From positions 1 through 34,071 of the IMG/VR virus record IMGVR_UViG_2721755657_000001: DNA of 34,071 bases. One strand, given 5' to 3'. A model generated the notes under the pieces. It saw nothing but the letters and a program-made list of their open reading frames with translations. It made no database searches and was not told where the DNA came from. Origin of the DNA: a virus. Its lineage: Duplodnaviria; Heunggongvirae; Uroviricota; Caudoviricetes. The translations under genes and the position numbers were made by a program. Below, piece by piece: positions 3,150 to 30,973 of the stretch; position 1 is the first letter of the stretch, and every line of letters begins with the position of its first letter.

Positions 3150-3374
3150 ATGCATACAGTTTCTGAAAATCAGTGCGGTAAATACGCATTACTGCTGCAA
3201 CAGGCCAGAACCGAAGCACAGGCCGACGCAGCGACGCGCTTTTCTTCTCATCTTGACGCCATGATTCGCCACATCACAAAGGCGGAGTTATCCCGCGTGG
3301 AGATAGTCGAGCTGCTCAGTCAGGAGTCGGAAAAATTTCACAATATCGGATTGTCTCGCGGGGAGGTGCTTTGA
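3150..3374 (+). CDS. Hypothetical early protein (orf80 position)
   Basis: ATG at 3150 with GGAGAAA SD, inside ORF 3117..3374. No recognisable motifs. Confidence 0.5.
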
Positions 3375-3676
3375 TGTCCTGTTCTCGTTCAGTTGTATTA
3401 CTGAATAACGCCTTAAAAATCGCCGTTATGAAAAATGGCGATTTATCTCTTATTCAACTTGGTCTTGATAAAGAAAAACGCGAAATAACTGAGTCTGTTA
3501 TCGCGATTTATCAGAACGAATTAAATCTCCTGTCTGATGTGGTCAATTTACTTGTTAAACGCGCTGTATTTCACAAGCAAATCTCCTCCGTGGATGAACT
3601 GACGAAATTAACGACAGAAATTGCCAGCTATTGCGCTGATGAATTTAAAAAACTTAACGACAAAAGGAGCTGGTAA
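3374..3676 (+). CDS. Hypothetical early protein (orf81 position)
   Basis: ATG at 3374 with GGAGG SD 7 nt upstream (the track start at 3371 is a TTG). 100 aa. Confidence 0.55.
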   Translation: MSCSRSVVLLNNALKIAVMKNGDLSLIQLGLDKEKREITESVIAIYQNELNLLSDVVNLLVKRAVFHKQISSVDELTKLTTEIASYCADEFKKLNDKRSW

Positions 3677-3900: not shown

Positions 3901-4172
3901 GTATTCGTATTGAAATTGGCGAACGTTATGTCGTTACCAGTGACAGCTTTCAGTTTATTCTCCACGAGAAAAAGAGAGCGGAAAGCGGTAAAAACGCCGG
4001 TCAGGAATGGCTGGCGGTGGTTGGTTATTACCCGAAATTAAGCCAGCTCGTTTCCGGCCTGATGCATCACGATATTCTGACCGGAAGCGCAAAATCTTTT
4101 GCTGATTTAAACGCGCAGGTTGAGCAACTCAGCAAGCGTTGTTCAGAGGCTTTTGGCTCATATGGCCGTTAA
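3897..4172 (+). CDS. Hypothetical early protein (orf83 position)
   Basis: 91-aa ORF, ATGA overlap with the upstream stop, GGAG SD. Its 3' end overlaps the A start. Confidence 0.55.
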   Translation: MSIRIEIGERYVVTSDSFQFILHEKKRAESGKNAGQEWLAVVGYYPKLSQLVSGLMHHDILTGSAKSFADLNAQVEQLSKRCSEAFGSYGR

Positions 4173-6447
4173 AGCCTCCGGGCGTTTTGTCCCTCCGGCA
4201 GCATTTGCCGCAGGCACCGGTAAGACGTTTACCGGTGCTTATGCATGGAACGCGCCACGCGAGGCTGTCGGGCGCGAAAGACCCCTTACACGTGACGAGA
4301 TGCGTCAGGTGCAAGGTGTTTTATCCACGATTAACCGCCTGCCTTACTTTTTGCGTTCGCTGTTTACTTCACGCTATGACTACATCCGGCGCAATAAAAG
4401 CCCGGTACACGGGTTTTATTTCCTCACATCCACTTTTCAGCGTCGTTTATGGCCGCGCATTGAGCGTGTGAATCAGCGCCATGAAATGAACACCGATGCG
4501 TCGTTGCTGTTTCTGGCAGAGCGCGACAAGTATGCGCGCCTGCCGGGAATGAATGACAGAGAGCTGAAAAAGTTTGCCGCCCGTATCTCATCGCTGCTTT
4601 TCATGATGTATGAGGAACTCTGCGATGCATGGGTTGATGCGCATGGCGAGAAAGAATCGCTGTTTACGGATGAGGCGCAGGCTCACCTCTATGGTCATGT
4701 TGCTGGTGCTGCTCGTGCTTTCAATATTTCCCCTCTCTACTGGAAAAAATACCGTAAAGGACAGATGACCACGAGGCAGGCATATTCTGCCATTGCCCGC
4801 CTGTTTAACGATGAGTGGTGGACTCATCAGCTTAAAGGCCAGCGTATGCGCTGGCATGAGGCGTTACTGATAGCTGTCGGGGAGGTTAATAAAGACCGTT
4901 CTCCTTATGCCAGTAAACATGCCATTCGTGATGTGCGTGCGCGCCGCCAGGCAAATCTGGAATTTCTTAAATCGTGTGACCTTGAAAACAGGGAAACCAG
5001 CGAGCGCATCGACCTTATCAGTAAGGTGATGGGCAGTATTTCTAATCCTGAAATTCGCCGGATGGAGCTGATGAACACCATTGCCGGTATTGAGCGTTAC
5101 GCCGCCGCAGAGGGTGATGTGGGGATGTTTATCACGCTGACCACGCCGTCAAAGTATCACCCGACACGTCAGGTCGGAAAAGGCGAAAGTAAAACCGTCC
5201 AGCTAAATCATGGCTGGAACGATGAGGCATTTAATCCAAAGGATGCGCAGCGTTATCTCTGCCGTATCTGGAGCCTGATGCGCACGGCATTCAAGGATAA
5301 TGATTTACAGGTCTACGGTTTGCGTGTCGTCGAGCCACACCACGACGGAACGCCGCACTGGCATATGATGCTTTTTTGTAATCCACGCCAGCGTAACCAG
5401 ATTATCGAAATCATGCGTCGCTATGCGCTCAAAGAGGATGGCGACGAAAGAGGAGCCGCGCGAAACCGTTTTCAGGCAAAACATCTTAACCGGGGCGGTG
5501 CTGCGGGGTATATCGCGAAATACATCTCAAAAAACATCGATGGCTATGCACTGGATGGTCAGCTCGATAACGATACCGGCAGGCCGCTGAAAGATACTGC
5601 TGCGGCTGTTACCGCATGGGCGTCAACGTGGCGCATTCCGCAATTTAAAACGGTTGGTCTGCCGACAATGGGGGCTTACCGTGAACTACGCAAATTGCCT
5701 CGCGGCGTCAGCATTGCTGATGAGTTTGACGAGCGCGTCGAGGCTGCACGCGCCGCTGCAGACAGTGGTGATTTTGCGTTGTATATCAGCGCGCAGGGCG
5801 GGGCAAATGTCCCGCGCGATTGTCAGACTGTCAGGGTCGCCCGTAGCCCGTCGGATGACGTTAACGAGTACGAGGAAGAAGTCGAGAGAGTGGTCGGCAT
5901 TTACGCGCCGCATCTCGGCGCGCGTCATATTCATATCACCAGAACGACGGACTGGCGCATTGTGCCGAAAGTGCCGGTCGTTGAGCCTTTGACGTTAAAA
6001 AGCGGCATCGCCGCGCCTCGGAGTCCTGTCAATAACTGTGGAAAGCTCTCCGGTGGTGATACTTCGTTACCGGTTCCCACACCTTCTGAACATGCCGCAG
6101 CCGTGCTTAATCTGGTTGATGACGGTGTTATCGAATGGAATGAGCCAGAGGTCGTGAGGGCGCTCAGAGGTGCATTAAAACACGGACTGAGAACACCAAA
6201 TCGTCAGCAGAGAAACAGAAGCCTGTTAAAACCACATGAAATAGCGCCATCGGCCAGACTGACCCGGTCGGAACGAACGCAAATTACCCGTATCCGCGTT
6301 GACCTTGCTCAGAACGGTATCAGGCCGCAGCGATGGGAGATTGAGGCGCTGGCGCGTGGGGCAACCGTAAATTATGACGGGAAAAAATTCACGTATCCGG
6401 TCGCTGATGAGTGGCCGGGATTCTCAACAGTAATGGAGTGGACATGA
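4162..6447 (+). CDS. A: Replication initiation protein A (rolling-circle nickase)
   Basis: 761-aa product from the ATG at 4162 (MAVKASGRFVPP...), within ORF 4120..6447. Sequence recalled as P2 gpA. Confidence 0.9.
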   Translation: MAVKASGRFVPPAAFAAGTGKTFTGAYAWNAPREAVGRERPLTRDEMRQVQGVLSTINRLPYFLRSLFTSRYDYIRRNKSPVHGFYFLTSTFQRRLWPRIERVNQRHEMNTDASLLFLAERDKYARLPGMNDRELKKFAARISSLLFMMYEELCDAWVDAHGEKESLFTDEAQAHLYGHVAGAARAFNISPLYWKKYRKGQMTTRQAYSAIARLFNDEWWTHQLKGQRMRWHEALLIAVGEVNKDRSPYASKHAIRDVRARRQANLEFLKSCDLENRETSERIDLISKVMGSISNPEIRRMELMNTIAGIERYAAAEGDVGMFITLTTPSKYHPTRQVGKGESKTVQLNHGWNDEAFNPKDAQRYLCRIWSLMRTAFKDNDLQVYGLRVVEPHHDGTPHWHMMLFCNPRQRNQIIEIMRRYALKEDGDERGAARNRFQAKHLNRGGAAGYIAKYISKNIDGYALDGQLDNDTGRPLKDTAAAVTAWASTWRIPQFKTVGLPTMGAYRELRKLPRGVSIADEFDERVEAARAAADSGDFALYISAQGGANVPRDCQTVRVARSPSDDVNEYEEEVERVVGIYAPHLGARHIHITRTTDWRIVPKVPVVEPLTLKSGIAAPRSPVNNCGKLSGGDTSLPVPTPSEHAAAVLNLVDDGVIEWNEPEVVRALRGALKHGLRTPNRQQRNRSLLKPHEIAPSARLTRSERTQITRIRVDLAQNGIRPQRWEIEALARGATVNYDGKKFTYPVADEWPGFSTVMEWT

Positions 6448-6899
6448 TGGCAAAAATTCACGAGGTAAAGCTGCACGCAAAATATTTCGACCTTGTGCTG
6501 GAAGGAAAGAAACGCGCAGAGTTTCGGAAAAATGACCGTAATTATGAGCGCGGGGACACGTTGATTTTGCATGAATGGGTGCAGGGTGTGTATACGGGGC
6601 GAAAGGTTGAAGCCCGGATAACAGATGTTACTGACCTGTCAGACTGGCTGGAAGATTATGTCTTGCTAAGTATTGAGCGGCTTAATACAGGCGCATATGA
6701 GATTGTGAACTGGAAAGAACTTAGTGAGCGTGGTCTGGTATTCAGAATTAATCATGAAATTATGCATCAGCTCGGCCTTGCTGTTATGTATGAATCAGAG
6801 ACGGGGATGTCTGGCGGGGCAATGGTAGCCACGGATGGAGCATGGAACTATTCAGATGAACAGATGGAGCGTGCAAAGCAAAACGGGTGGCTTGGATAA
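6444..6899 (+). CDS. ASCH/PUA-like (DUF3850-like) domain protein, translationally coupled to A
   Basis: ATG at 6444 overlaps the A stop (ATGA). The N-terminal ~80 aa (KIHEVKLHAKYFDLVLEGKKRAEFRKNDRNYERGDTLILHE) resemble the ASCH GxKxxExR-type fold. Domain call is from motif reading only. Confidence 0.5.
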   Translation: MMAKIHEVKLHAKYFDLVLEGKKRAEFRKNDRNYERGDTLILHEWVQGVYTGRKVEARITDVTDLSDWLEDYVLLSIERLNTGAYEIVNWKELSERGLVFRINHEIMHQLGLAVMYESETGMSGGAMVATDGAWNYSDEQMERAKQNGWLG

Positions 6900-7105
6900 T
6901 GCACAGAATACCAGGCGAGATACCGCACCATAAAACTAAAAATATCAAGCTGATGGCTATTGTTCAGCGTTTACAGCGGATTATGGTCAACGAAAATCTG
7001 ACGCCCGATGAGCTGGTCGGGTGTGCCGAAATAGTACGGGATAATTACGGGCGGCTTAACTATATCGGTCAGTCCAGAGTTGCGCCACCACCACGCAGAC
7101 GATAG
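6899..7105 (+). CDS. Small hypothetical protein (68 aa), coupled to upstream gene
   Basis: ATG at 6899 in a TAATG overlap with the upstream stop. Arg/Pro-rich C-terminus. Backbone-like base composition. Confidence 0.4.
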   Translation: MHRIPGEIPHHKTKNIKLMAIVQRLQRIMVNENLTPDELVGCAEIVRDNYGRLNYIGQSRVAPPPRRR

Positions 7106-7328
7106 AGAACGCCGCCAGTTGTGAAACTTGTTTTCAGGGCTGGCGGGGTTGAACAACGAGCGAAGCGAGACGTTAGTTGACAGACATATTTTTACTACGT
7201 TGGTGCTGGTTTTTGACGGTTGAAAGGAGTTAGGTTGGAGAGCTAACAACTTACAAATATTCAAAAGTAAGCATCCTGTTGCTAACATGAGGTTGATTTT
7301 TTATGTGGATGATGCAAAAAGGATAGCT

Positions 7329-8060
7329 ATGGATACTATAATCGCTTTTCTATCACTCGCTTTTTTCGTTGCTTTCTTCATCGGGCTAATCAAGCCATCA
7401 CTGGTGCGAATGCCAAACCGCAAACGTGCAAGTGCGGTTTATCTCGGAGGAGGTTTTGTATTGAGCATAATTGGTTCAATACTCTATCCAACAGAAAAAA
7501 GCCAGCCAGTTGCTAAAACTGAAACATCAACCGTTGCAGAACACAAAGTCCAAAAAACATTCGAATATGGTGAAAAAACACTCAAGGAATATCGGAACGA
7601 GTCAAAGAAAACACGACACGATATTGTGAATAGTTACATTGATTTTAAGGAAGTTCCAGCCACCGCGTCAGATGCGTTTTATGCCTGCATGAGTGAGTAT
7701 ACATTTACCAAAGATGATGAGTTGAAACTCGGTGATGTTCTTGGGTGGTGCTTTAATGATTATGAAAATGACCCGAGTTCACTAAACAATAAAATCAATC
7801 TTGATACATTTCAGAGTAATTTTAGTGGTTGGGATGGTTCTTATCGTCCATTGGAAAAACTAATTAAAGATAATATGAACGATGATTCATCTTATAAACA
7901 TGTGTCAACGGTATATCATCTGGTTTTGAATAAAGACCCGCATGCCATTGTGAAAACCACGTTTCGCGGAACTAATGCTTATGGCGGAGTAGTGAAACAG
8001 ACGATTGCTGCGCGTGTCAATGTAGAAACAGGTGAGGTTGTATCAATTATAAGTGAGTGA
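7329..8060 (+). CDS. Cargo gene 1 in the A-cos (tin/old) slot: membrane-anchored protein of unknown function
   Basis: ATG at 7329 with AAGGA SD 5 nt upstream (alternative ATG at 7287 has no SD). Two N-terminal hydrophobic segments (IIAFLSLAFFVAFFIGLI, VYLGGGFVLSIIGSILY) followed by a ~190-aa soluble domain. Visibly AT-rich relative to flanking phage genes. Confidence 0.65.
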   Translation: MDTIIAFLSLAFFVAFFIGLIKPSLVRMPNRKRASAVYLGGGFVLSIIGSILYPTEKSQPVAKTETSTVAEHKVQKTFEYGEKTLKEYRNESKKTRHDIVNSYIDFKEVPATASDAFYACMSEYTFTKDDELKLGDVLGWCFNDYENDPSSLNNKINLDTFQSNFSGWDGSYRPLEKLIKDNMNDDSSYKHVSTVYHLVLNKDPHAIVKTTFRGTNAYGGVVKQTIAARVNVETGEVVSIISE

Positions 8061-8158
8061 ACTGTGCCAGAATGATAAAGATGCCAGCATTTATGCTGGC
8101 AATCATAAAAATAGTGACTAGCAAAAATTGGTGTCTGGTTTTAATGTGAGATTAGAAA

Positions 8159-8857
8159 ATGAAGAGATGTAAATATATTTTAAGAGGTTTGTTGCTGAAG
8201 TTTAAAAGTATAAGTTCTATGCATTTGTTATTTGTTTTAATAACGGCTTGTCTATTCTTTTTTATAGGGTGTTACGTGGGTTATAGTGGTATTGGTTTGA
8301 ATGGTGACACTAAATACCAATTAATTACAATACCTTTTTTGACCATGTTGGGTACTTGGGTTTCTGGGGTGGGAGCATTTTCTGCTGTTGCGACATCATT
8401 GTTGTTGGCACACCGTTCGCTAAAGGAAAATTCAGAAGAAATTGCTATTCGATATAGCATGGTGTTAATACCATCAATGTACTTACCTAGCACTACAGAT
8501 ACAGCAATATCAATAACCATAACAAACAAAAGAAAAGTAAGGAGTAATATTCAATCGGTTGTTTTGCAATTTTCTAATAATAAAGCAATGAATATATGGG
8601 TAAACCCCGGGACGCTTATCTCTGGCAAGTTACCGCATGTTTTAGAAGACTATGGTGATATATTGACGCTTATAATTCCAGAGAGCATTACCGCATCAGT
8701 AACTGATGAGGGGTTCGTAAAAGAATGTCAGGGGAATACTCTTGGAGAAGGTAGCGTCGTAGTTCACACAACGACAAAAACATTTGTAAAAAAATTAACA
8801 TTACCTCAAATTAAGCCATTTAATGATAAATTTAAGTCTGTATTGACGAAGCCGTAA
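8159..8857 (+). CDS. Cargo gene 2 in the A-cos slot: membrane/lipoprotein-like protein of unknown function
   Basis: 232-aa ORF. Basic N-terminus, then hydrophobic stretches (LLFVLITACLFFFIGC, possible lipobox FIGC; second stretch AFSAVATSLLLA), then a ~140-aa soluble C-terminal region. AT-rich. 98 bp downstream of cargo gene 1 on the same strand. Confidence 0.6.
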   Translation: MKRCKYILRGLLLKFKSISSMHLLFVLITACLFFFIGCYVGYSGIGLNGDTKYQLITIPFLTMLGTWVSGVGAFSAVATSLLLAHRSLKENSEEIAIRYSMVLIPSMYLPSTTDTAISITITNKRKVRSNIQSVVLQFSNNKAMNIWVNPGTLISGKLPHVLEDYGDILTLIIPESITASVTDEGFVKECQGNTLGEGSVVVHTTTKTFVKKLTLPQIKPFNDKFKSVLTKP

Positions 8858-27887: not shown

Positions 27888-28039
27888 CGTTTCCAAAAAA
27901 TCTCTCGGTCGATGACCTGATGGCGGATGTGGCAGTGATATTTCACTGGCCGCCATCAGAACTGTATCCCATGAGCCTGACCGAACTCATCACATGGCGC
28001 GAAAAGGCGCTCCGGCGAAGCGGAAACACGAATGAGTAA
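27612..28039 (+). CDS. E': Tail assembly chaperone E+E' (-1 programmed frameshift product)
   Basis: After a -1 slip at T_TTT_TTG (27860..27866) the -1 frame is open to TAA at 28037..28039 (extension VAELGAVTFPKNLSVDDLMADVAVIFHWPPSELYPMSLTELITWREKALRRSGNTNE), overlapping the T start. Confidence 0.8.
27860..27866 (+). promoter_or_regulatory. Slippery heptamer T_TTT_TTG for the E/E' -1 frameshift
   Basis: Zero-frame codons TTT(27861..27863) TTG(27864..27866) preceded by T(27860). Same heptamer and position as recalled for P2 E/E'. Confidence 0.8.
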
Positions 28040-30479
28040 CAATGTAAAATTACAGGTATTGCTCAGGGCTGTTGACCAGGCATCCCGCCCGTTTAAATCC
28101 ATCCGCACAGCGAGCAAATCGCTGTCGGGGGATATCCGGGAAACACAAAAATCACTGCGCGAGCTGAACGGTCAGGCGTCCCGTATTGAGGGATTTCGCA
28201 AGACCAGTGCACAGCTCGCCGTGACTGGTCATGCACTTGAAAAGGCTCGGCAGGAAGCCGAAGCCCTTGCCACACAGTTTAAAAACACCGAACGTCCGAC
28301 CCGTGCTCAGGCGAAAGTGCTGGAATCCGCAAAGCGTGCGTCGGAGGACTTACAGGCGAAATATAACCGCCTGACGGATTCCGTTAAACGCCAGCAGCGG
28401 GAACTGGCCGCTGTGGGAATTAATACCCGCAATCTTGCACATGATGAGCAGGGACTGAAAAACCGTATCAGTGAAACCACCGCACAGCTTAACCGTCAGC
28501 GCGACGCGCTGGCGCGTGTCAGTGCGCAACAGGCAAAACTTAACGCAGTAAAACAGCGTTATCAGTCCGGAAAGGAACTGGCCGGAAATATGGCCTCAGT
28601 GGGCGCTGCCGGTGTGGGGATTGCGGCGGCGGGAACGATGGCCGGTGTTAAGCTACTGATGCCCGGTTATGAGTTTGCGCAGAAAAACTCAGAATTGCAG
28701 GCCGTGCTAGGTGTGGCAAAAGACTCCGCCGAAATGGCCGCACTCCGCAAGCAGGCGCGCCAGCTCGGTGACAATACTGCCGCCTCGGCGGATGATGCAG
28801 CCGGTGCACAGATTATCATTGCGAAAGCCGGTGGGGATGTTGATGCCATTCAGGCGGCAACGCCGGTCACGCTGAATATGGCACTGGTGAACCGCCGCAC
28901 GATGGAAGAAAACGCCGCCCTGCTGATGGGGATGAAATCCGCCTTTCAGCTTTCAAACGATAAGGTCGCTCATATCGGGGATGTTCTCTCCATGACGATG
29001 AACAAAACCGCCGCCGATTTTGACGGCATGAGCGATGCGCTGACCTATGCCGCACCAGTGGCAAATAATGCCGGTGTCAGCATTGAAGAAACCGCCGCAA
29101 TGGTCGGGGCGCTGCATGATGCAAAAATCACAGGCTCAATGGCGGGGACGGGAAGCCGTGCCGTGTTAAGTCGCCTGCAGGCACCAACGGGAAAAGCATG
29201 GGATGCACTCAAAGAGCTTGGCGTGAAAACCTCAGACAGTAAAGGGAATACCCGACCAGTATTTACCATTCTGAAAGAAATGCAGGCCAGTTTTGAGAAA
29301 AACCGGCTCGGTACTGCCCAGCAGGCTGAATACATGAAAACCATTTTCGGGGAGGAGGCCAGCTCAGCCGCCGCCGTGCTGATGACTGCCGCCTCAACCG
29401 GAAAGCTGGACAAACTGACCGCGGCGTTTAAAGCCTCAGACGGGAAGACCGCAGAGCTGGTAAATATCATGCAGGACAATCTCGGCGGTGACTTTAAGGA
29501 GTTTCAGTCCGCTTATGAGGCGGTGGGGACTGACCTGTTTGACCAGCAGGAAGGCGCACTGCGTAAGCTCATGCAGACGGCCACAAAGTATGTGTTAAAA
29601 CTCGACGGCTGGATACAGAAAAACAAATCACTGGCGTCAACCATTGGTCTCATTGCCGGTGGCGCACTGGCGCTGACTGGCATCATCGGTGCAATTGGTC
29701 TTGTAGCCTGGCCGGTTATCACCGGCATCAATGCCATCATCGCGGCAGCAGGCGCAATGGGGGCAATCTTCACGACGGTTGGCAGTGCTGTTATGACGGC
29801 CATCGGGGCGATTAGCTGGCCGGTTGTGGCCGTGGTGGCTGCAATTGTCGCCGGGGCGTTGCTTATCCGTAAATACTGGGAGCCTGTCAGCGCATTCTTT
29901 GGCGGTGTGGTTGAAGGGCTGAAAGCAGCATTTGCGCCGGTGGGGGAACTGTTCACGCCACTTAAGCCGGTATTTGACTGGCTGGGTGAAAAGTTACAGG
30001 CTGCGTGGCAGTGGTTTAAAAACCTGATTGCACCGGTCAAAGCCACCCAGGACACCCTGAACCGTTGCCGTGACACGGGCGTCATGTTCGGGCAGGCACT
30101 GGCTGACGCGCTGATGCTGCCGCTTAATGCGTTCAACAAATTACGCAGCGGCATTGACTGGGTACTGGAAAAGCTCGGGGTCATCAACAAAGAGTCAGAC
30201 ACACTTGACCAGACCGCCGCCAGAACTCATGCCGCCACGTATGGCACCGGTGGTTATATTCCGGCGACCAGCTCTTATGCAGGCTATCAGGCTTATCAGC
30301 CGGTCACGGCACCGGCTGGCCGCTCTTATGTGGACCAGAGTAAAAACGAATATCACATCAGCCTGACGGGTGGTACTGCGCCGGGGACACAGCTTGACCG
30401 CCAGTTACAGGATGCACTCGAAAAATACGAGCGGGATAAACGTGCGCGCGCCCGTGCCAGCATGATGCATGACGGTTAA
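28032..30479 (+). CDS. T: Tail tape measure protein
   Basis: 815-aa ORF, Ala/Gly-rich with hydrophobic central segments. P2 T position. Confidence 0.92.
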   Translation: MSNNVKLQVLLRAVDQASRPFKSIRTASKSLSGDIRETQKSLRELNGQASRIEGFRKTSAQLAVTGHALEKARQEAEALATQFKNTERPTRAQAKVLESAKRASEDLQAKYNRLTDSVKRQQRELAAVGINTRNLAHDEQGLKNRISETTAQLNRQRDALARVSAQQAKLNAVKQRYQSGKELAGNMASVGAAGVGIAAAGTMAGVKLLMPGYEFAQKNSELQAVLGVAKDSAEMAALRKQARQLGDNTAASADDAAGAQIIIAKAGGDVDAIQAATPVTLNMALVNRRTMEENAALLMGMKSAFQLSNDKVAHIGDVLSMTMNKTAADFDGMSDALTYAAPVANNAGVSIEETAAMVGALHDAKITGSMAGTGSRAVLSRLQAPTGKAWDALKELGVKTSDSKGNTRPVFTILKEMQASFEKNRLGTAQQAEYMKTIFGEEASSAAAVLMTAASTGKLDKLTAAFKASDGKTAELVNIMQDNLGGDFKEFQSAYEAVGTDLFDQQEGALRKLMQTATKYVLKLDGWIQKNKSLASTIGLIAGGALALTGIIGAIGLVAWPVITGINAIIAAAGAMGAIFTTVGSAVMTAIGAISWPVVAVVAAIVAGALLIRKYWEPVSAFFGGVVEGLKAAFAPVGELFTPLKPVFDWLGEKLQAAWQWFKNLIAPVKATQDTLNRCRDTGVMFGQALADALMLPLNAFNKLRSGIDWVLEKLGVINKESDTLDQTAARTHAATYGTGGYIPATSSYAGYQAYQPVTAPAGRSYVDQSKNEYHISLTGGTAPGTQLDRQLQDALEKYERDKRARARASMMHDG

Positions 30480-30493
30480 GGAGGTGACGAAAA

Positions 30494-30973
30494 ATGATGC
30501 TCGCGTTAGGTATGTTTGTTTTTATGCGCCAGACGCTGCCACACCAGACCATGCAGCGTGAATCAGATTATCGCTGGCCGTCAAATTCCCGTATCGGTAA
30601 ACGGGACGCCTACCAGTTTCTCGGTGTTGGCGATGAAAACATCACGCTTGCCGGTGTGCTTTATCCTGAACTGACCGGCGGAAAGCTGACGATGACCACG
30701 CTCAGGCTGATGGCAGAGGAAGGCCGGGCGTGGCCGTTGCTGGATGGCACCGGCATGATTTACGGCATGTATGTCATCAGCAAGGTGAGTGAAACAGGGA
30801 GTATTTTCTTTGCAGACGGCACACCCCGAAAAATTGATTTTACGCTGTCGCTCACCCGTGTTGATGAATCACTGGCCGCGCTTTATGGCGATATCGGTAA
30901 ACAGGCGGAATCGCTCATCGGTAAGGCTGGCAGTATGGCGACCAGATTCACGGGTATGACGGGGGTGGGATAA
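30494..30973 (+). CDS. U: Tail protein U
   Basis: 159-aa ORF after T with GAGGTGA SD. Confidence 0.88.
   Translation: MMLALGMFVFMRQTLPHQTMQRESDYRWPSNSRIGKRDAYQFLGVGDENITLAGVLYPELTGGKLTMTTLRLMAEEGRAWPLLDGTGMIYGMYVISKVSETGSIFFADGTPRKIDFTLSLTRVDESLAALYGDIGKQAESLIGKAGSMATRFTGMTGVG

Follow-up and report, generated by a model that had tools for sequence, protein, structure and literature searches.

What follows the replication gene of a P2-like phage, and where does the conserved early region give way to variable cargo? The DNA analysed here (the window, 34,071 nucleotides (nt), IMG/VR record IMGVR_UViG_2721755657_000001) is a P2-like (Peduovirus) prophage whose genes from left to right are int, C, cox, B, genes of the orf80-83 type and gene A, with the portal and terminase genes beyond them on the opposite strand. 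A sequence-only reading had placed two small genes directly after A, which we call ORF1 and ORF2 (open reading frames 1 and 2), and had described the first as ASCH-like and both as translationally coupled to A. We find that ORF1 and ORF2 are almost certainly real, co-oriented early-operon genes of the Orf91/DUF3850 family (Table 1).

The start of gene A is likely the ATG at 4162, giving a 761-amino acid (aa) protein that matches its RefSeq relatives, rather than the TTG at 4120 from which the mechanical ORF begins; in these relatives A is 2286 nt long and ends in the same ATGA overlap. In the window the A stop codon (TGA, 6445-6447) lies inside ATGATG (6444-6449), which offers ORF1 two start codons: ATG 6444, with a 4-nt ATGA overlap and 151 aa, and ATG 6447, with a 1-nt overlap and 150 aa. 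The ATGA overlap with the A stop is thus present as first described, and GGAG stands 5 or 8 nt 5' of the candidate starts. Position 6447 is the more likely general start, because the first of the two candidate codons is ATT in phage 12474III, for which RefSeq uses the second ATG, and because distant homologues open with M-[STA]-K-I-H. ORF1 stops at TAA 6897-6899, and ORF2 starts at ATG 6899 within TAATG (6897-6901), again as the first reading had it. Both junctions therefore show the stop/start overlap of a translationally coupled pair (ATGA/TGATG at 6444-6449 for A and ORF1, TAATG for ORF1 and ORF2), and a sequence scan of the A-ORF1 junction found nothing that resembles a promoter or a terminator. 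In prophages of E. coli, Citrobacter, Enterobacter and K. aerogenes, the gene encoding DUF7415, the C-terminal domain of ORF1, lies -4 to +11 nt from A on the same strand. Judged from these overlaps, ORF1 and ORF2 appear to be coupled to A by arrangement. Window positions 6444-7177 would be the last part of the early (replication) transcription unit. Ribosomes that re-initiate at the stop codons of A and ORF1 probably translate ORF1 and ORF2 from the Pe early mRNA, so that both would be made alongside the replication proteins. The GC fraction of the two genes (0.43-0.49) is intermediate, with a GC step just past 7180; of the backbone-like composition that had been claimed for them, what stands is that they lie above the cargo (0.29-0.43), but they fall below gene A (0.52-0.60).

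Table 1. Features of the window from gene A to the cargo genes.
Feature	Position	Strand	Evidence
Gene A, rolling-circle replication nickase (context)	4162-6447	+	Pfam Phage_GPA, E = 4.1e-123
ORF1, two-domain protein of the Orf91 family	6444-6899	+	phrog_1812 over full length, 2.2e-82; 92-97% identity to intact phage genes
DUF3850/ASCH (PUA-like) domain, ORF1 residues 5-77	6456-6674	+	PF12961, 6.6e-18; PF04266, 3.5e-11
DUF7415 domain, ORF1 residues 87-150, helix-helix-strand-strand-helix	6702-6893	+	PF24187, 1.1e-13
ORF2, 68 aa	6899-7105	+	phrog_11386, 3.3e-39
19-bp hairpin directly past the ORF2 stop codon	7108-7150	+	RNAfold -34.1 kcal/mol, z = -3.05
Conserved block GUUGAACAACGAGC-N3/4-GCGAGGCGUUAG, 3' of the hairpin	7150-7177	+	alignment A7, 20 copies
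Two low-GC (0.29-0.43) cargo ORFs, 257 and 232 aa	7287-8060, 8159-8857	+	phrog_3403 (1e-145), phrog_23429 (5e-81)

The 662-bp stretch that holds both genes occurs in 402 of 5426 complete E. coli genomes, where RefSeq labels the pair as a "DUF3850 domain-containing protein" and a "hypothetical protein", and in 81 phage records. Conservation was counted over 80 IMG/VR loci, including 50 close relatives and 19 relatives at 53-57% identity. ORF1 is uninterrupted in 49/50 of the close and 19/19 of the distant relatives, and ORF2 follows it in 50/50 and 15/19, respectively; ORF1 is also intact in P2_2H4, S164, P37, 12474III and L-413C (92-97% identical). The one notable frameshifted relative is the record of phage Wphi, whose frameshifts are probable record errors (see below). 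The expectation that the genes are conserved across P2-like phages holds in these relatives but not universally: P2 keeps only the ASCH part of ORF1 (aa 1-75), and 186, PSP3, pro147 and 720R8 do not have ORF1.

Selection was estimated by Nei-Gojobori counts of nonsynonymous (dN) and synonymous (dS) change. The DUF7415 half of ORF1 gives dN/dS of 0.12-0.18 where dS is still measurable. The core of ORF2 (codons 19-52) has dN of 0.04-0.1 with synonymous sites saturated, a codon pattern that reflects selection on protein and led us to reject a non-coding or DNA-level conserved element. Codons 2-18 of ORF2 differ between the window and a Salmonella copy by 8 synonymous and 3 non-synonymous changes, and the tail (codons 53-63) shows no constraint. 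Because codons 2-18 are constrained, and with M1 conserved, we place the ORF2 start at 6899 and judge the internal Met19, used in 50-aa NCBI models, to be an unlikely start. Purifying selection acts on both ORF1 and ORF2, which are far beyond chance ORFs.

ORF1 is the orthologue, in full-length form, of P2 Orf91 (NP_046796, "DUF3850 domain-containing protein"). The two are 97% identical over aa 1-75, share the DUF3850/ASCH domain and stand in the same position, adjacent to A and overlapping it by ATGA (in P2, A spans 28034-30319 and Orf91 30316-30645). Full-length forms are also found in Wphi, L-413C, P37 and 12474III. Reference P2 diverges from the window at 6667, where the ASCH domain ends and the tin-old insertion begins, so that P2 Orf91 is a truncated form with an unrelated 34-aa tail in place of DUF7415. 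The Wphi record (NC_005056, locus L001 2945-3690, dated 2003) carries seven single-base insertions compared with all other relatives. As all of these are intact, the insertions look like sequencing errors, and we rejected pseudogenisation as their explanation. They break the Orf91-family gene into "gp91" and "gp92", each corresponding to one half of ORF1 (the C-terminal one in the case of "gp92", which is not ORF2), and they obscure the 68-aa ORF. The error has probably propagated into UniProt (Q7Y4B6).

Mosaic breakpoints among P2-like phages were seen at window positions 6667/6668, the ASCH/DUF7415 boundary (P2), at ~6940 just inside ORF2 (L-413C), at ~7070 near the ORF2 tail (12474 phages) and at ~7178 past the hairpin element (Wphi, 720R8 and YpM phages).

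The identity of the first gene was already catalogued, by the RefSeq DUF3850 label and as DUF3850/ASCH by Rousset et al. 2022, and what is added here is incremental: the two-domain architecture, the context of DUF7415, the constraint on ORF2 and the RNA element at the boundary. A literature search found no paper that assigns a function to DUF3850, Orf91 or DUF7415.

The ASCH-like character proposed for the first ~80 aa of ORF1 is confirmed by profile, sequence and fold searches. PF12961 matches over profile positions 1-77 of 77 with 65.1 bits (gathering cut-off 22.9), and the ASCH profile PF04266 scores 44.2 bits (cut-off 21.2), so that both Pfam matches are above their gathering thresholds. 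The sole sequence relative in the PDB is 3IUW (E = 3.8e-13), an 83-aa "activating signal cointegrator" of Enterococcus faecalis from structural genomics, which is 40% identical to ORF1 over 75-80 residues. An AlphaFold model of ORF1, built from 59 sequences, has a mean predicted local distance difference test score (pLDDT) of 88.6, and of ~90 across residues 1-80; Foldseek aligns it to 3IUW with E = 4.3e-10, a template modelling score (TM) of 0.94 and a root-mean-square deviation of 1.2 A, and further matches are the ASCH proteins PH0355, TTHA0113, YqfB, ZmASCH and TRIP4. In this model the N-terminal domain is a PUA-like beta-barrel, superposable on 3IUW, which is the one DUF3850 protein with a solved structure. 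The two proteins share the short PUA-like barrel and a GxKxxExR-type motif, but 3IUW is a single domain that lacks both DUF7415 and a phage replication context. GxKxxExR is reportedly an N-terminal motif of ASCH domains. It is present in ORF1 as G21-K22-K23-R24-A25-E26-F27-R28 (G21-x-K23-x-x-E26-x-R28), with K23 and R28 invariant in alignment A3 and Leu at the E26 position in proteins P0025, P0026 and P0169.

Is this domain an enzyme? ORF1 could be a small enzyme that acts on free modified nucleosides or nucleotides (a YqfB/EOLA1-like deacylase) or a single-stranded RNA nuclease (ZmASCH-like), feeding or cleaning the nucleotide pool during replication. The characterised stand-alone bacterial ASCH proteins are N4-acetylcytidine (ac4C) amidohydrolases or a single-stranded RNA ribonuclease, Foldseek lists YqfB and ZmASCH among the matches at E = 2e-3 to 4e-2, and elsewhere DUF7415 is fused to enzymes of the deoxynucleoside triphosphate (dNTP) pool. 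The superfamily fold is indeed common to ORF1 and the YqfB/EOLA1-type amidohydrolases and ZmASCH (Foldseek probability ~1), but the likeness is at fold level only (TM 0.35-0.5, 10-13% identity), and the DUF3850 subfamily has a truncated barrel of ~75 aa. The YqfB ac4C amidohydrolase uses the triad Lys21/Thr24/Glu74, plus Arg26 (PMC9599836). The Lys and Arg are present in ORF1, but the position of the Thr24 nucleophile is Glu26, and Leu in several orthologues, and thus is not a conserved catalytic residue. We rejected a YqfB-type ac4C amidohydrolase on these residues, and an enzymatic ORF1 of any of these kinds is improbable. Because the nucleophile position is Glu in ORF1 and Leu in some relatives, the domain probably binds nucleic acid or (modified) nucleotides and does not act as an amidohydrolase of the YqfB type.

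The C-terminal half of ORF1 is a DUF7415 domain, which the sequence-only reading had missed, as it had missed ORF2 as a constrained separate module and the hairpin element. PF24187 matches residues 87-129 with 51.5 bits (gathering cut-off 27), and in alignments A2 and A3 this half, with the conserved core GLVFRIN-E-LH-LGLA...S-GA-VA-DG-W-YS, is the better conserved of the two. Modelled alone it reaches a pLDDT of 93.7. Against solved structures in the PDB the model found no Foldseek match (best E = 2), and against BFVD it matched only other uncharacterised DUF7415 phage proteins (TM 0.74-0.84), from Proteus, Salmonella, Morganella, Vibrio and Escherichia phages. These include Morganella phage MP1, Escherichia phage mar003J3 and Vibrio phage nt-1, which we take to be T4-like myoviruses. 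When 1.84 billion representative proteins were searched exhaustively with HMMER, only 178 DUF7415 clusters (50% identity) were recovered at E <= 1e-3, most of the proteins being 60-170 aa long. A zincin metallopeptidase, suggested by H104-E105-I-M-H108 (HEIMH) in ORF1, was considered and rejected: distant members have Y, N, T, K or R in place of the first His, and the Foldseek matches of the domain include no zincin.

Among thirty longer DUF7415 proteins, the recognisable partners fused to the domain are the dATP/dGTP pyrophosphohydrolase PF04447 (three), thymidylate kinase (two), an Rv2179c-like 3'-5' exonuclease of the DEDD type (one) and DUF3850 (one). Neighbourhoods were compared across independent lineages. 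The order gpA, ASCH-DUF7415 is that of E. coli, Citrobacter and Enterobacter, and in K. aerogenes (loci L015, L105 and L108) the DUF7415 protein that follows gpA differs in its N-terminal part. In L013, L107 and L112 the order is replication protein (Toprim primase type, ~900 aa), DUF7415, Dam methylase, with an ATGA overlap between the first two; the order is DksA-type zinc finger, DUF7415, Dam, gpA in L034, DUF7415 then gpA in L111, and C5 methylase then DUF7415 in L036.

Seven database proteins (P0016, P0018, P0032, P0038, P0013, P0035 and P0040) join the DUF7415 or the ASCH half to unrelated phage segments (Cox-like, RepB-like, tail/gpD-like). These look like recombinant or mis-assembled prophage junctions and not true domain fusions.

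Because DUF7415 adjoins two unrelated replication initiators, the gpA nickase and the Toprim primase, and is fused to dNTP-pool enzymes, it is probably an adaptor or interaction module that ties an N-terminal cargo to phage DNA replication or dNTP supply. The whole module would be accessory and not essential: P2 lacks most of it and 186, PSP3, pro147 and 720R8 lack ORF1, so that any replication role must be dispensable. Taking the gene order and the domains together, our preferred though tentative reading is that ORF1 and ORF2 may serve phage replication or nucleotide handling in an accessory way that the phage can do without. A bolder version, in which DUF7415 would be a hitherto unrecognised replisome- or initiator-docking domain that brings nucleotide-pool enzymes and PUA-like readers to phage DNA synthesis in P2-like temperate and T4-like lytic phages alike, and in which ORF2 and the RNA element at 7108-7177 would form a 3'-end regulatory module, is doubtful. 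Such a module could, by RNase III/retroregulation or as a protein-binding site, control the early transcript and delimit the site of cargo insertion in the P2 hotspot.

Several observations weigh against a role in replication. Reference P2 is without DUF7415, ORF2 and the hairpin element and yet replicates normally, and the four phages just named do without ORF1 altogether. In L115 DUF7415 follows gpL in the late region, away from replication genes, and in L031, a T4-like jumbo phage of 176 kb, it lies in an early accessory region by NUDIX, deoxynucleoside monophosphate (dNMP) kinase and Acb1. A methylation-related or anti-defence role would be just as compatible with the DNA methyltransferases that adjoin DUF7415 genes in L013, L034 and L036, and the case for the adaptor consists of neighbourhoods and a handful of fusions, 6 of 30 long proteins having a recognisable partner domain. 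The whole interval between gpA and gpQ, with all its genes, has been defined as a defence hotspot (Rousset et al. 2022, PMC9122126). Finally, a preprint (PMC12407873) calls orf91 "an essential protein", without data, a statement that is at odds with an accessory module but hard to reconcile with the natural absence of the gene from 186, PSP3, pro147 and 720R8.

The methyltransferase neighbours may point to a methylation-related role for the ASCH-DUF7415 protein and, together with the PUA-like character of ASCH, sustain the main rival of an accessory replication factor, namely a counter-defence module. Here ORF1, as a PUA-like reader of modified bases or nucleotides joined to DUF7415, and perhaps ORF2, would be early inhibitors or decoys that shield phage DNA, on entry or during replication, against the defences of the host, or that control its methylation. 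PUA-superfamily domains (EVE, YTH, SRA, ASCH) are typical modified-base sensors, and the Foldseek list for the ORF1 model includes YTH, EVE and TRIP4-DNA complexes. The Dam or C5 methyltransferases beside DUF7415 fit this role, as does the C5 methylase that is the first cargo gene in Wphi, P37 and 12474III; the stand-alone DUF7415 of the T4-like jumbo phage sits among NUDIX, Acb1 and GmrSD_N-type early genes. A survey of ParB-CTPases (PNAS 2025, PMC12704722) suggests anti-defence roles for phage DUF3850 fusions. The N-terminal domain of ORF1 matches these ParB-CTPase-DUF3850 fusions (phrog_986) at 8.7e-43 over their DUF3850 part, and both are enriched in prophages, but the fusions have an N-terminal ParB CTP-binding fold and a parA neighbour, neither of which ORF1 has, and ORF1 carries DUF7415 instead. 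Against counter-defence, neither similarity to characterised anti-defence proteins nor a PADLOC or PHROG functional match was found, the only PADLOC-DB defence-model match to ORF1 being one of 12.7 bits (E = 0.023). The window has no methyltransferase in this region, and the strongest positional signal is adjacency to replication initiators and not to defence genes. We consider counter-defence unlikely, although it is the rival to be taken most seriously.

The methyltransferases next to DUF7415 genes (Dam-type or C5) lie at 4481-5257 in L013, 4405-5286 in L034 and 1887-2810 in L036. The C5 methylase that is the first cargo gene past ORF2 and the element lies at 3856-4794 of L001 in Wphi, and at 2892-3920 of L006 and 2885-3823 of L007 in P37 and 12474III.

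ORF2 is an independent, strongly constrained 68-aa protein and a module separate from ORF1. It consists of a semi-conserved basic N-terminus (residues 1-18), a near-invariant core (residues 19-50, M19-Y50) and a variable Pro/Arg-rich tail (alignment A1); the core, MAIV.RLQ.IMVNENLTP.ELVGCAEIVRDNY, is almost unchanged across genera. The phrog_11386 family comprises 179 clusters (90% identity) in E. coli, Salmonella, Citrobacter, Klebsiella, Enterobacter and Buttiauxella. The two genes can occur apart: in K. aerogenes the protein before ORF2 has DUF7415 only, PSP3-type Salmonella prophages carry ORF2 by itself past tumA/tumB (DinI), the gene being gp37 of PSP3, and some Enterobacter prophages retain ORF1 without ORF2. 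Searches of Pfam, NCBIfam, PADLOC and the PDB found no relative. Matches to talin/VBS at E = 0.01-0.2 were taken as noise, and a resemblance to the portal C-terminus in Enterobacter loci (tblastn E ~3e-4) was put down to chance, as ORF2 does not align to the window's own portal.

Two NCBI proteins, P0129 and P0136 (50-51 aa, matching window 6953-7105), are N-terminally truncated models of ORF2 that carry the name "meiotically up-regulated 80 protein". The name comes from fission yeast, and its transfer to these models is almost certainly spurious.

The element past ORF2 (7108-7177, ~70 nt), a hairpin followed by a conserved block, was found by blastn in 65 phage records across Peduovirus, Eganvirus (186, PSP3, EtG) and Vimunumvirus, and is also present at most of the loci examined. 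At every locus inspected it shares its strand with the rightward genes and sits at the 3' end of whichever conserved gene comes last. The upper part of the stem, CUGAAAC...UUUCAG, hardly varies. Twenty copies from these three genera and from prophages were aligned (A7); 92% of cells are paired, compared with 33-52% in slid controls, and five pairs have changed on both sides. The frequent G.U pairs indicate that the element functions on the + strand as RNA or single-stranded DNA, and not as a DNA palindrome. One Enterobacter prophage has lost ORF2 and kept its last ~20 nt together with the element, and GC falls from ~0.5 to ~0.38 just past it. In our view it is at this element that the conserved early region truly ends on its right, ahead of the low-GC cargo. 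How it acts is a matter of possibilities: it may stabilise the RNA 3' end, be cut by RNase III, bind a protein or mark a boundary of recombination.

The closest known setting is the right end of phage 186, where a sequence 85% identical to the element (186 nt 30344-30412) follows orf97 of the SOS (p95) operon and stands at the 3' end of the final rightward gene ahead of cos. The annotated terminator of 186, t95b, is a separate hairpin 24 nt downstream; unlike 186, the window has no U-tract terminator past the element, and 1.9 kb of cargo lies between the element and the cos/Q region. An intrinsic terminator was rejected for the hairpin itself, as the stem is followed by GGGGUUGAACAACG with no U-tract, a terminator scan made no call and 186 has its separate terminator. 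The element has no Rfam match at E <= 1. We also set aside an integron attC-like site, whose R''/R' core we take to be RYYYAAC ... GTTRRRY: by eye, the flanks of the hairpin are unlike this core, and no pattern search was run.

Two copies of the element bracket the first cargo gene in some loci (S164, Salmonella, L056, L063, L075 and L077). In loci with such an arrangement, copies lie at 3581-3650 in L005 and at 3307-3377 and 3712-3782 in L021, and the second copy is ~970 nt downstream in L056, L063, L075 and L077. The gene between the two elements is a cargo gene, or ORF2 itself in Salmonella. Two copies round a single gene suggest that cassettes are gained or lost by recombination at the element.

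Where the boundary lies matters, since P2 is a classic model phage and its gpA-gpQ region is a major hotspot of anti-phage systems. For annotation, and for delimiting the cargo of the hotspot, it is useful to know that the natural Orf91 is an ASCH-DUF7415 protein truncated in reference P2, that a constrained 68-aa protein follows and that an RNA hairpin marks the boundary. The neighbourhoods and fusions of DUF7415 also provide a testable lead on an uncharacterised phage domain; current understanding is unchanged unless the functional guess is confirmed experimentally.

If the hotspot is taken to begin at A, as Rousset et al. 2022 (PMC9122126) define it, ORF1 and ORF2 would be its first cargo genes, expressed from the prophage and acting in defence or exclusion with the 7287-8857 genes against other phages. 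That work lists arrangements of "DUF3850/ASCH + hypothetical + hypothetical + hypothetical", reports an HHpred match of 99.5% for P2 orf91 to DUF3850 and used an old-tin construct that contained orf91 as gene 3. Mosaic breakpoints inside or right past the two genes (P2 at 6667, L-413C at ~6940, 12474III at ~7070) likewise fit a cargo status. However, ORF1 and ORF2 stay constant while the cargo downstream varies (methylase, Orf97-like, retron-type reverse transcriptase and others), the overlap with gene A and the intermediate GC are unlike cargo, the conserved element parts the two genes from it, and neither gene has a PADLOC match. A defence or exclusion role for ORF1 and ORF2 is, on this evidence, very unlikely, and we keep to the accessory replication or nucleotide-handling factor as the preferred reading.

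The cargo of the window itself includes the two low-GC ORFs in the 7287-8857 interval. No Pfam match reaching the gathering score, no NCBIfam match and no PADLOC match was obtained for either. They are a candidate for an uncharacterised exclusion or defence pair in the P2 hotspot. Both have hydrophobic N-terminal segments, and both are shared with P2_2H4, where part of the pair is annotated as "Orf97".

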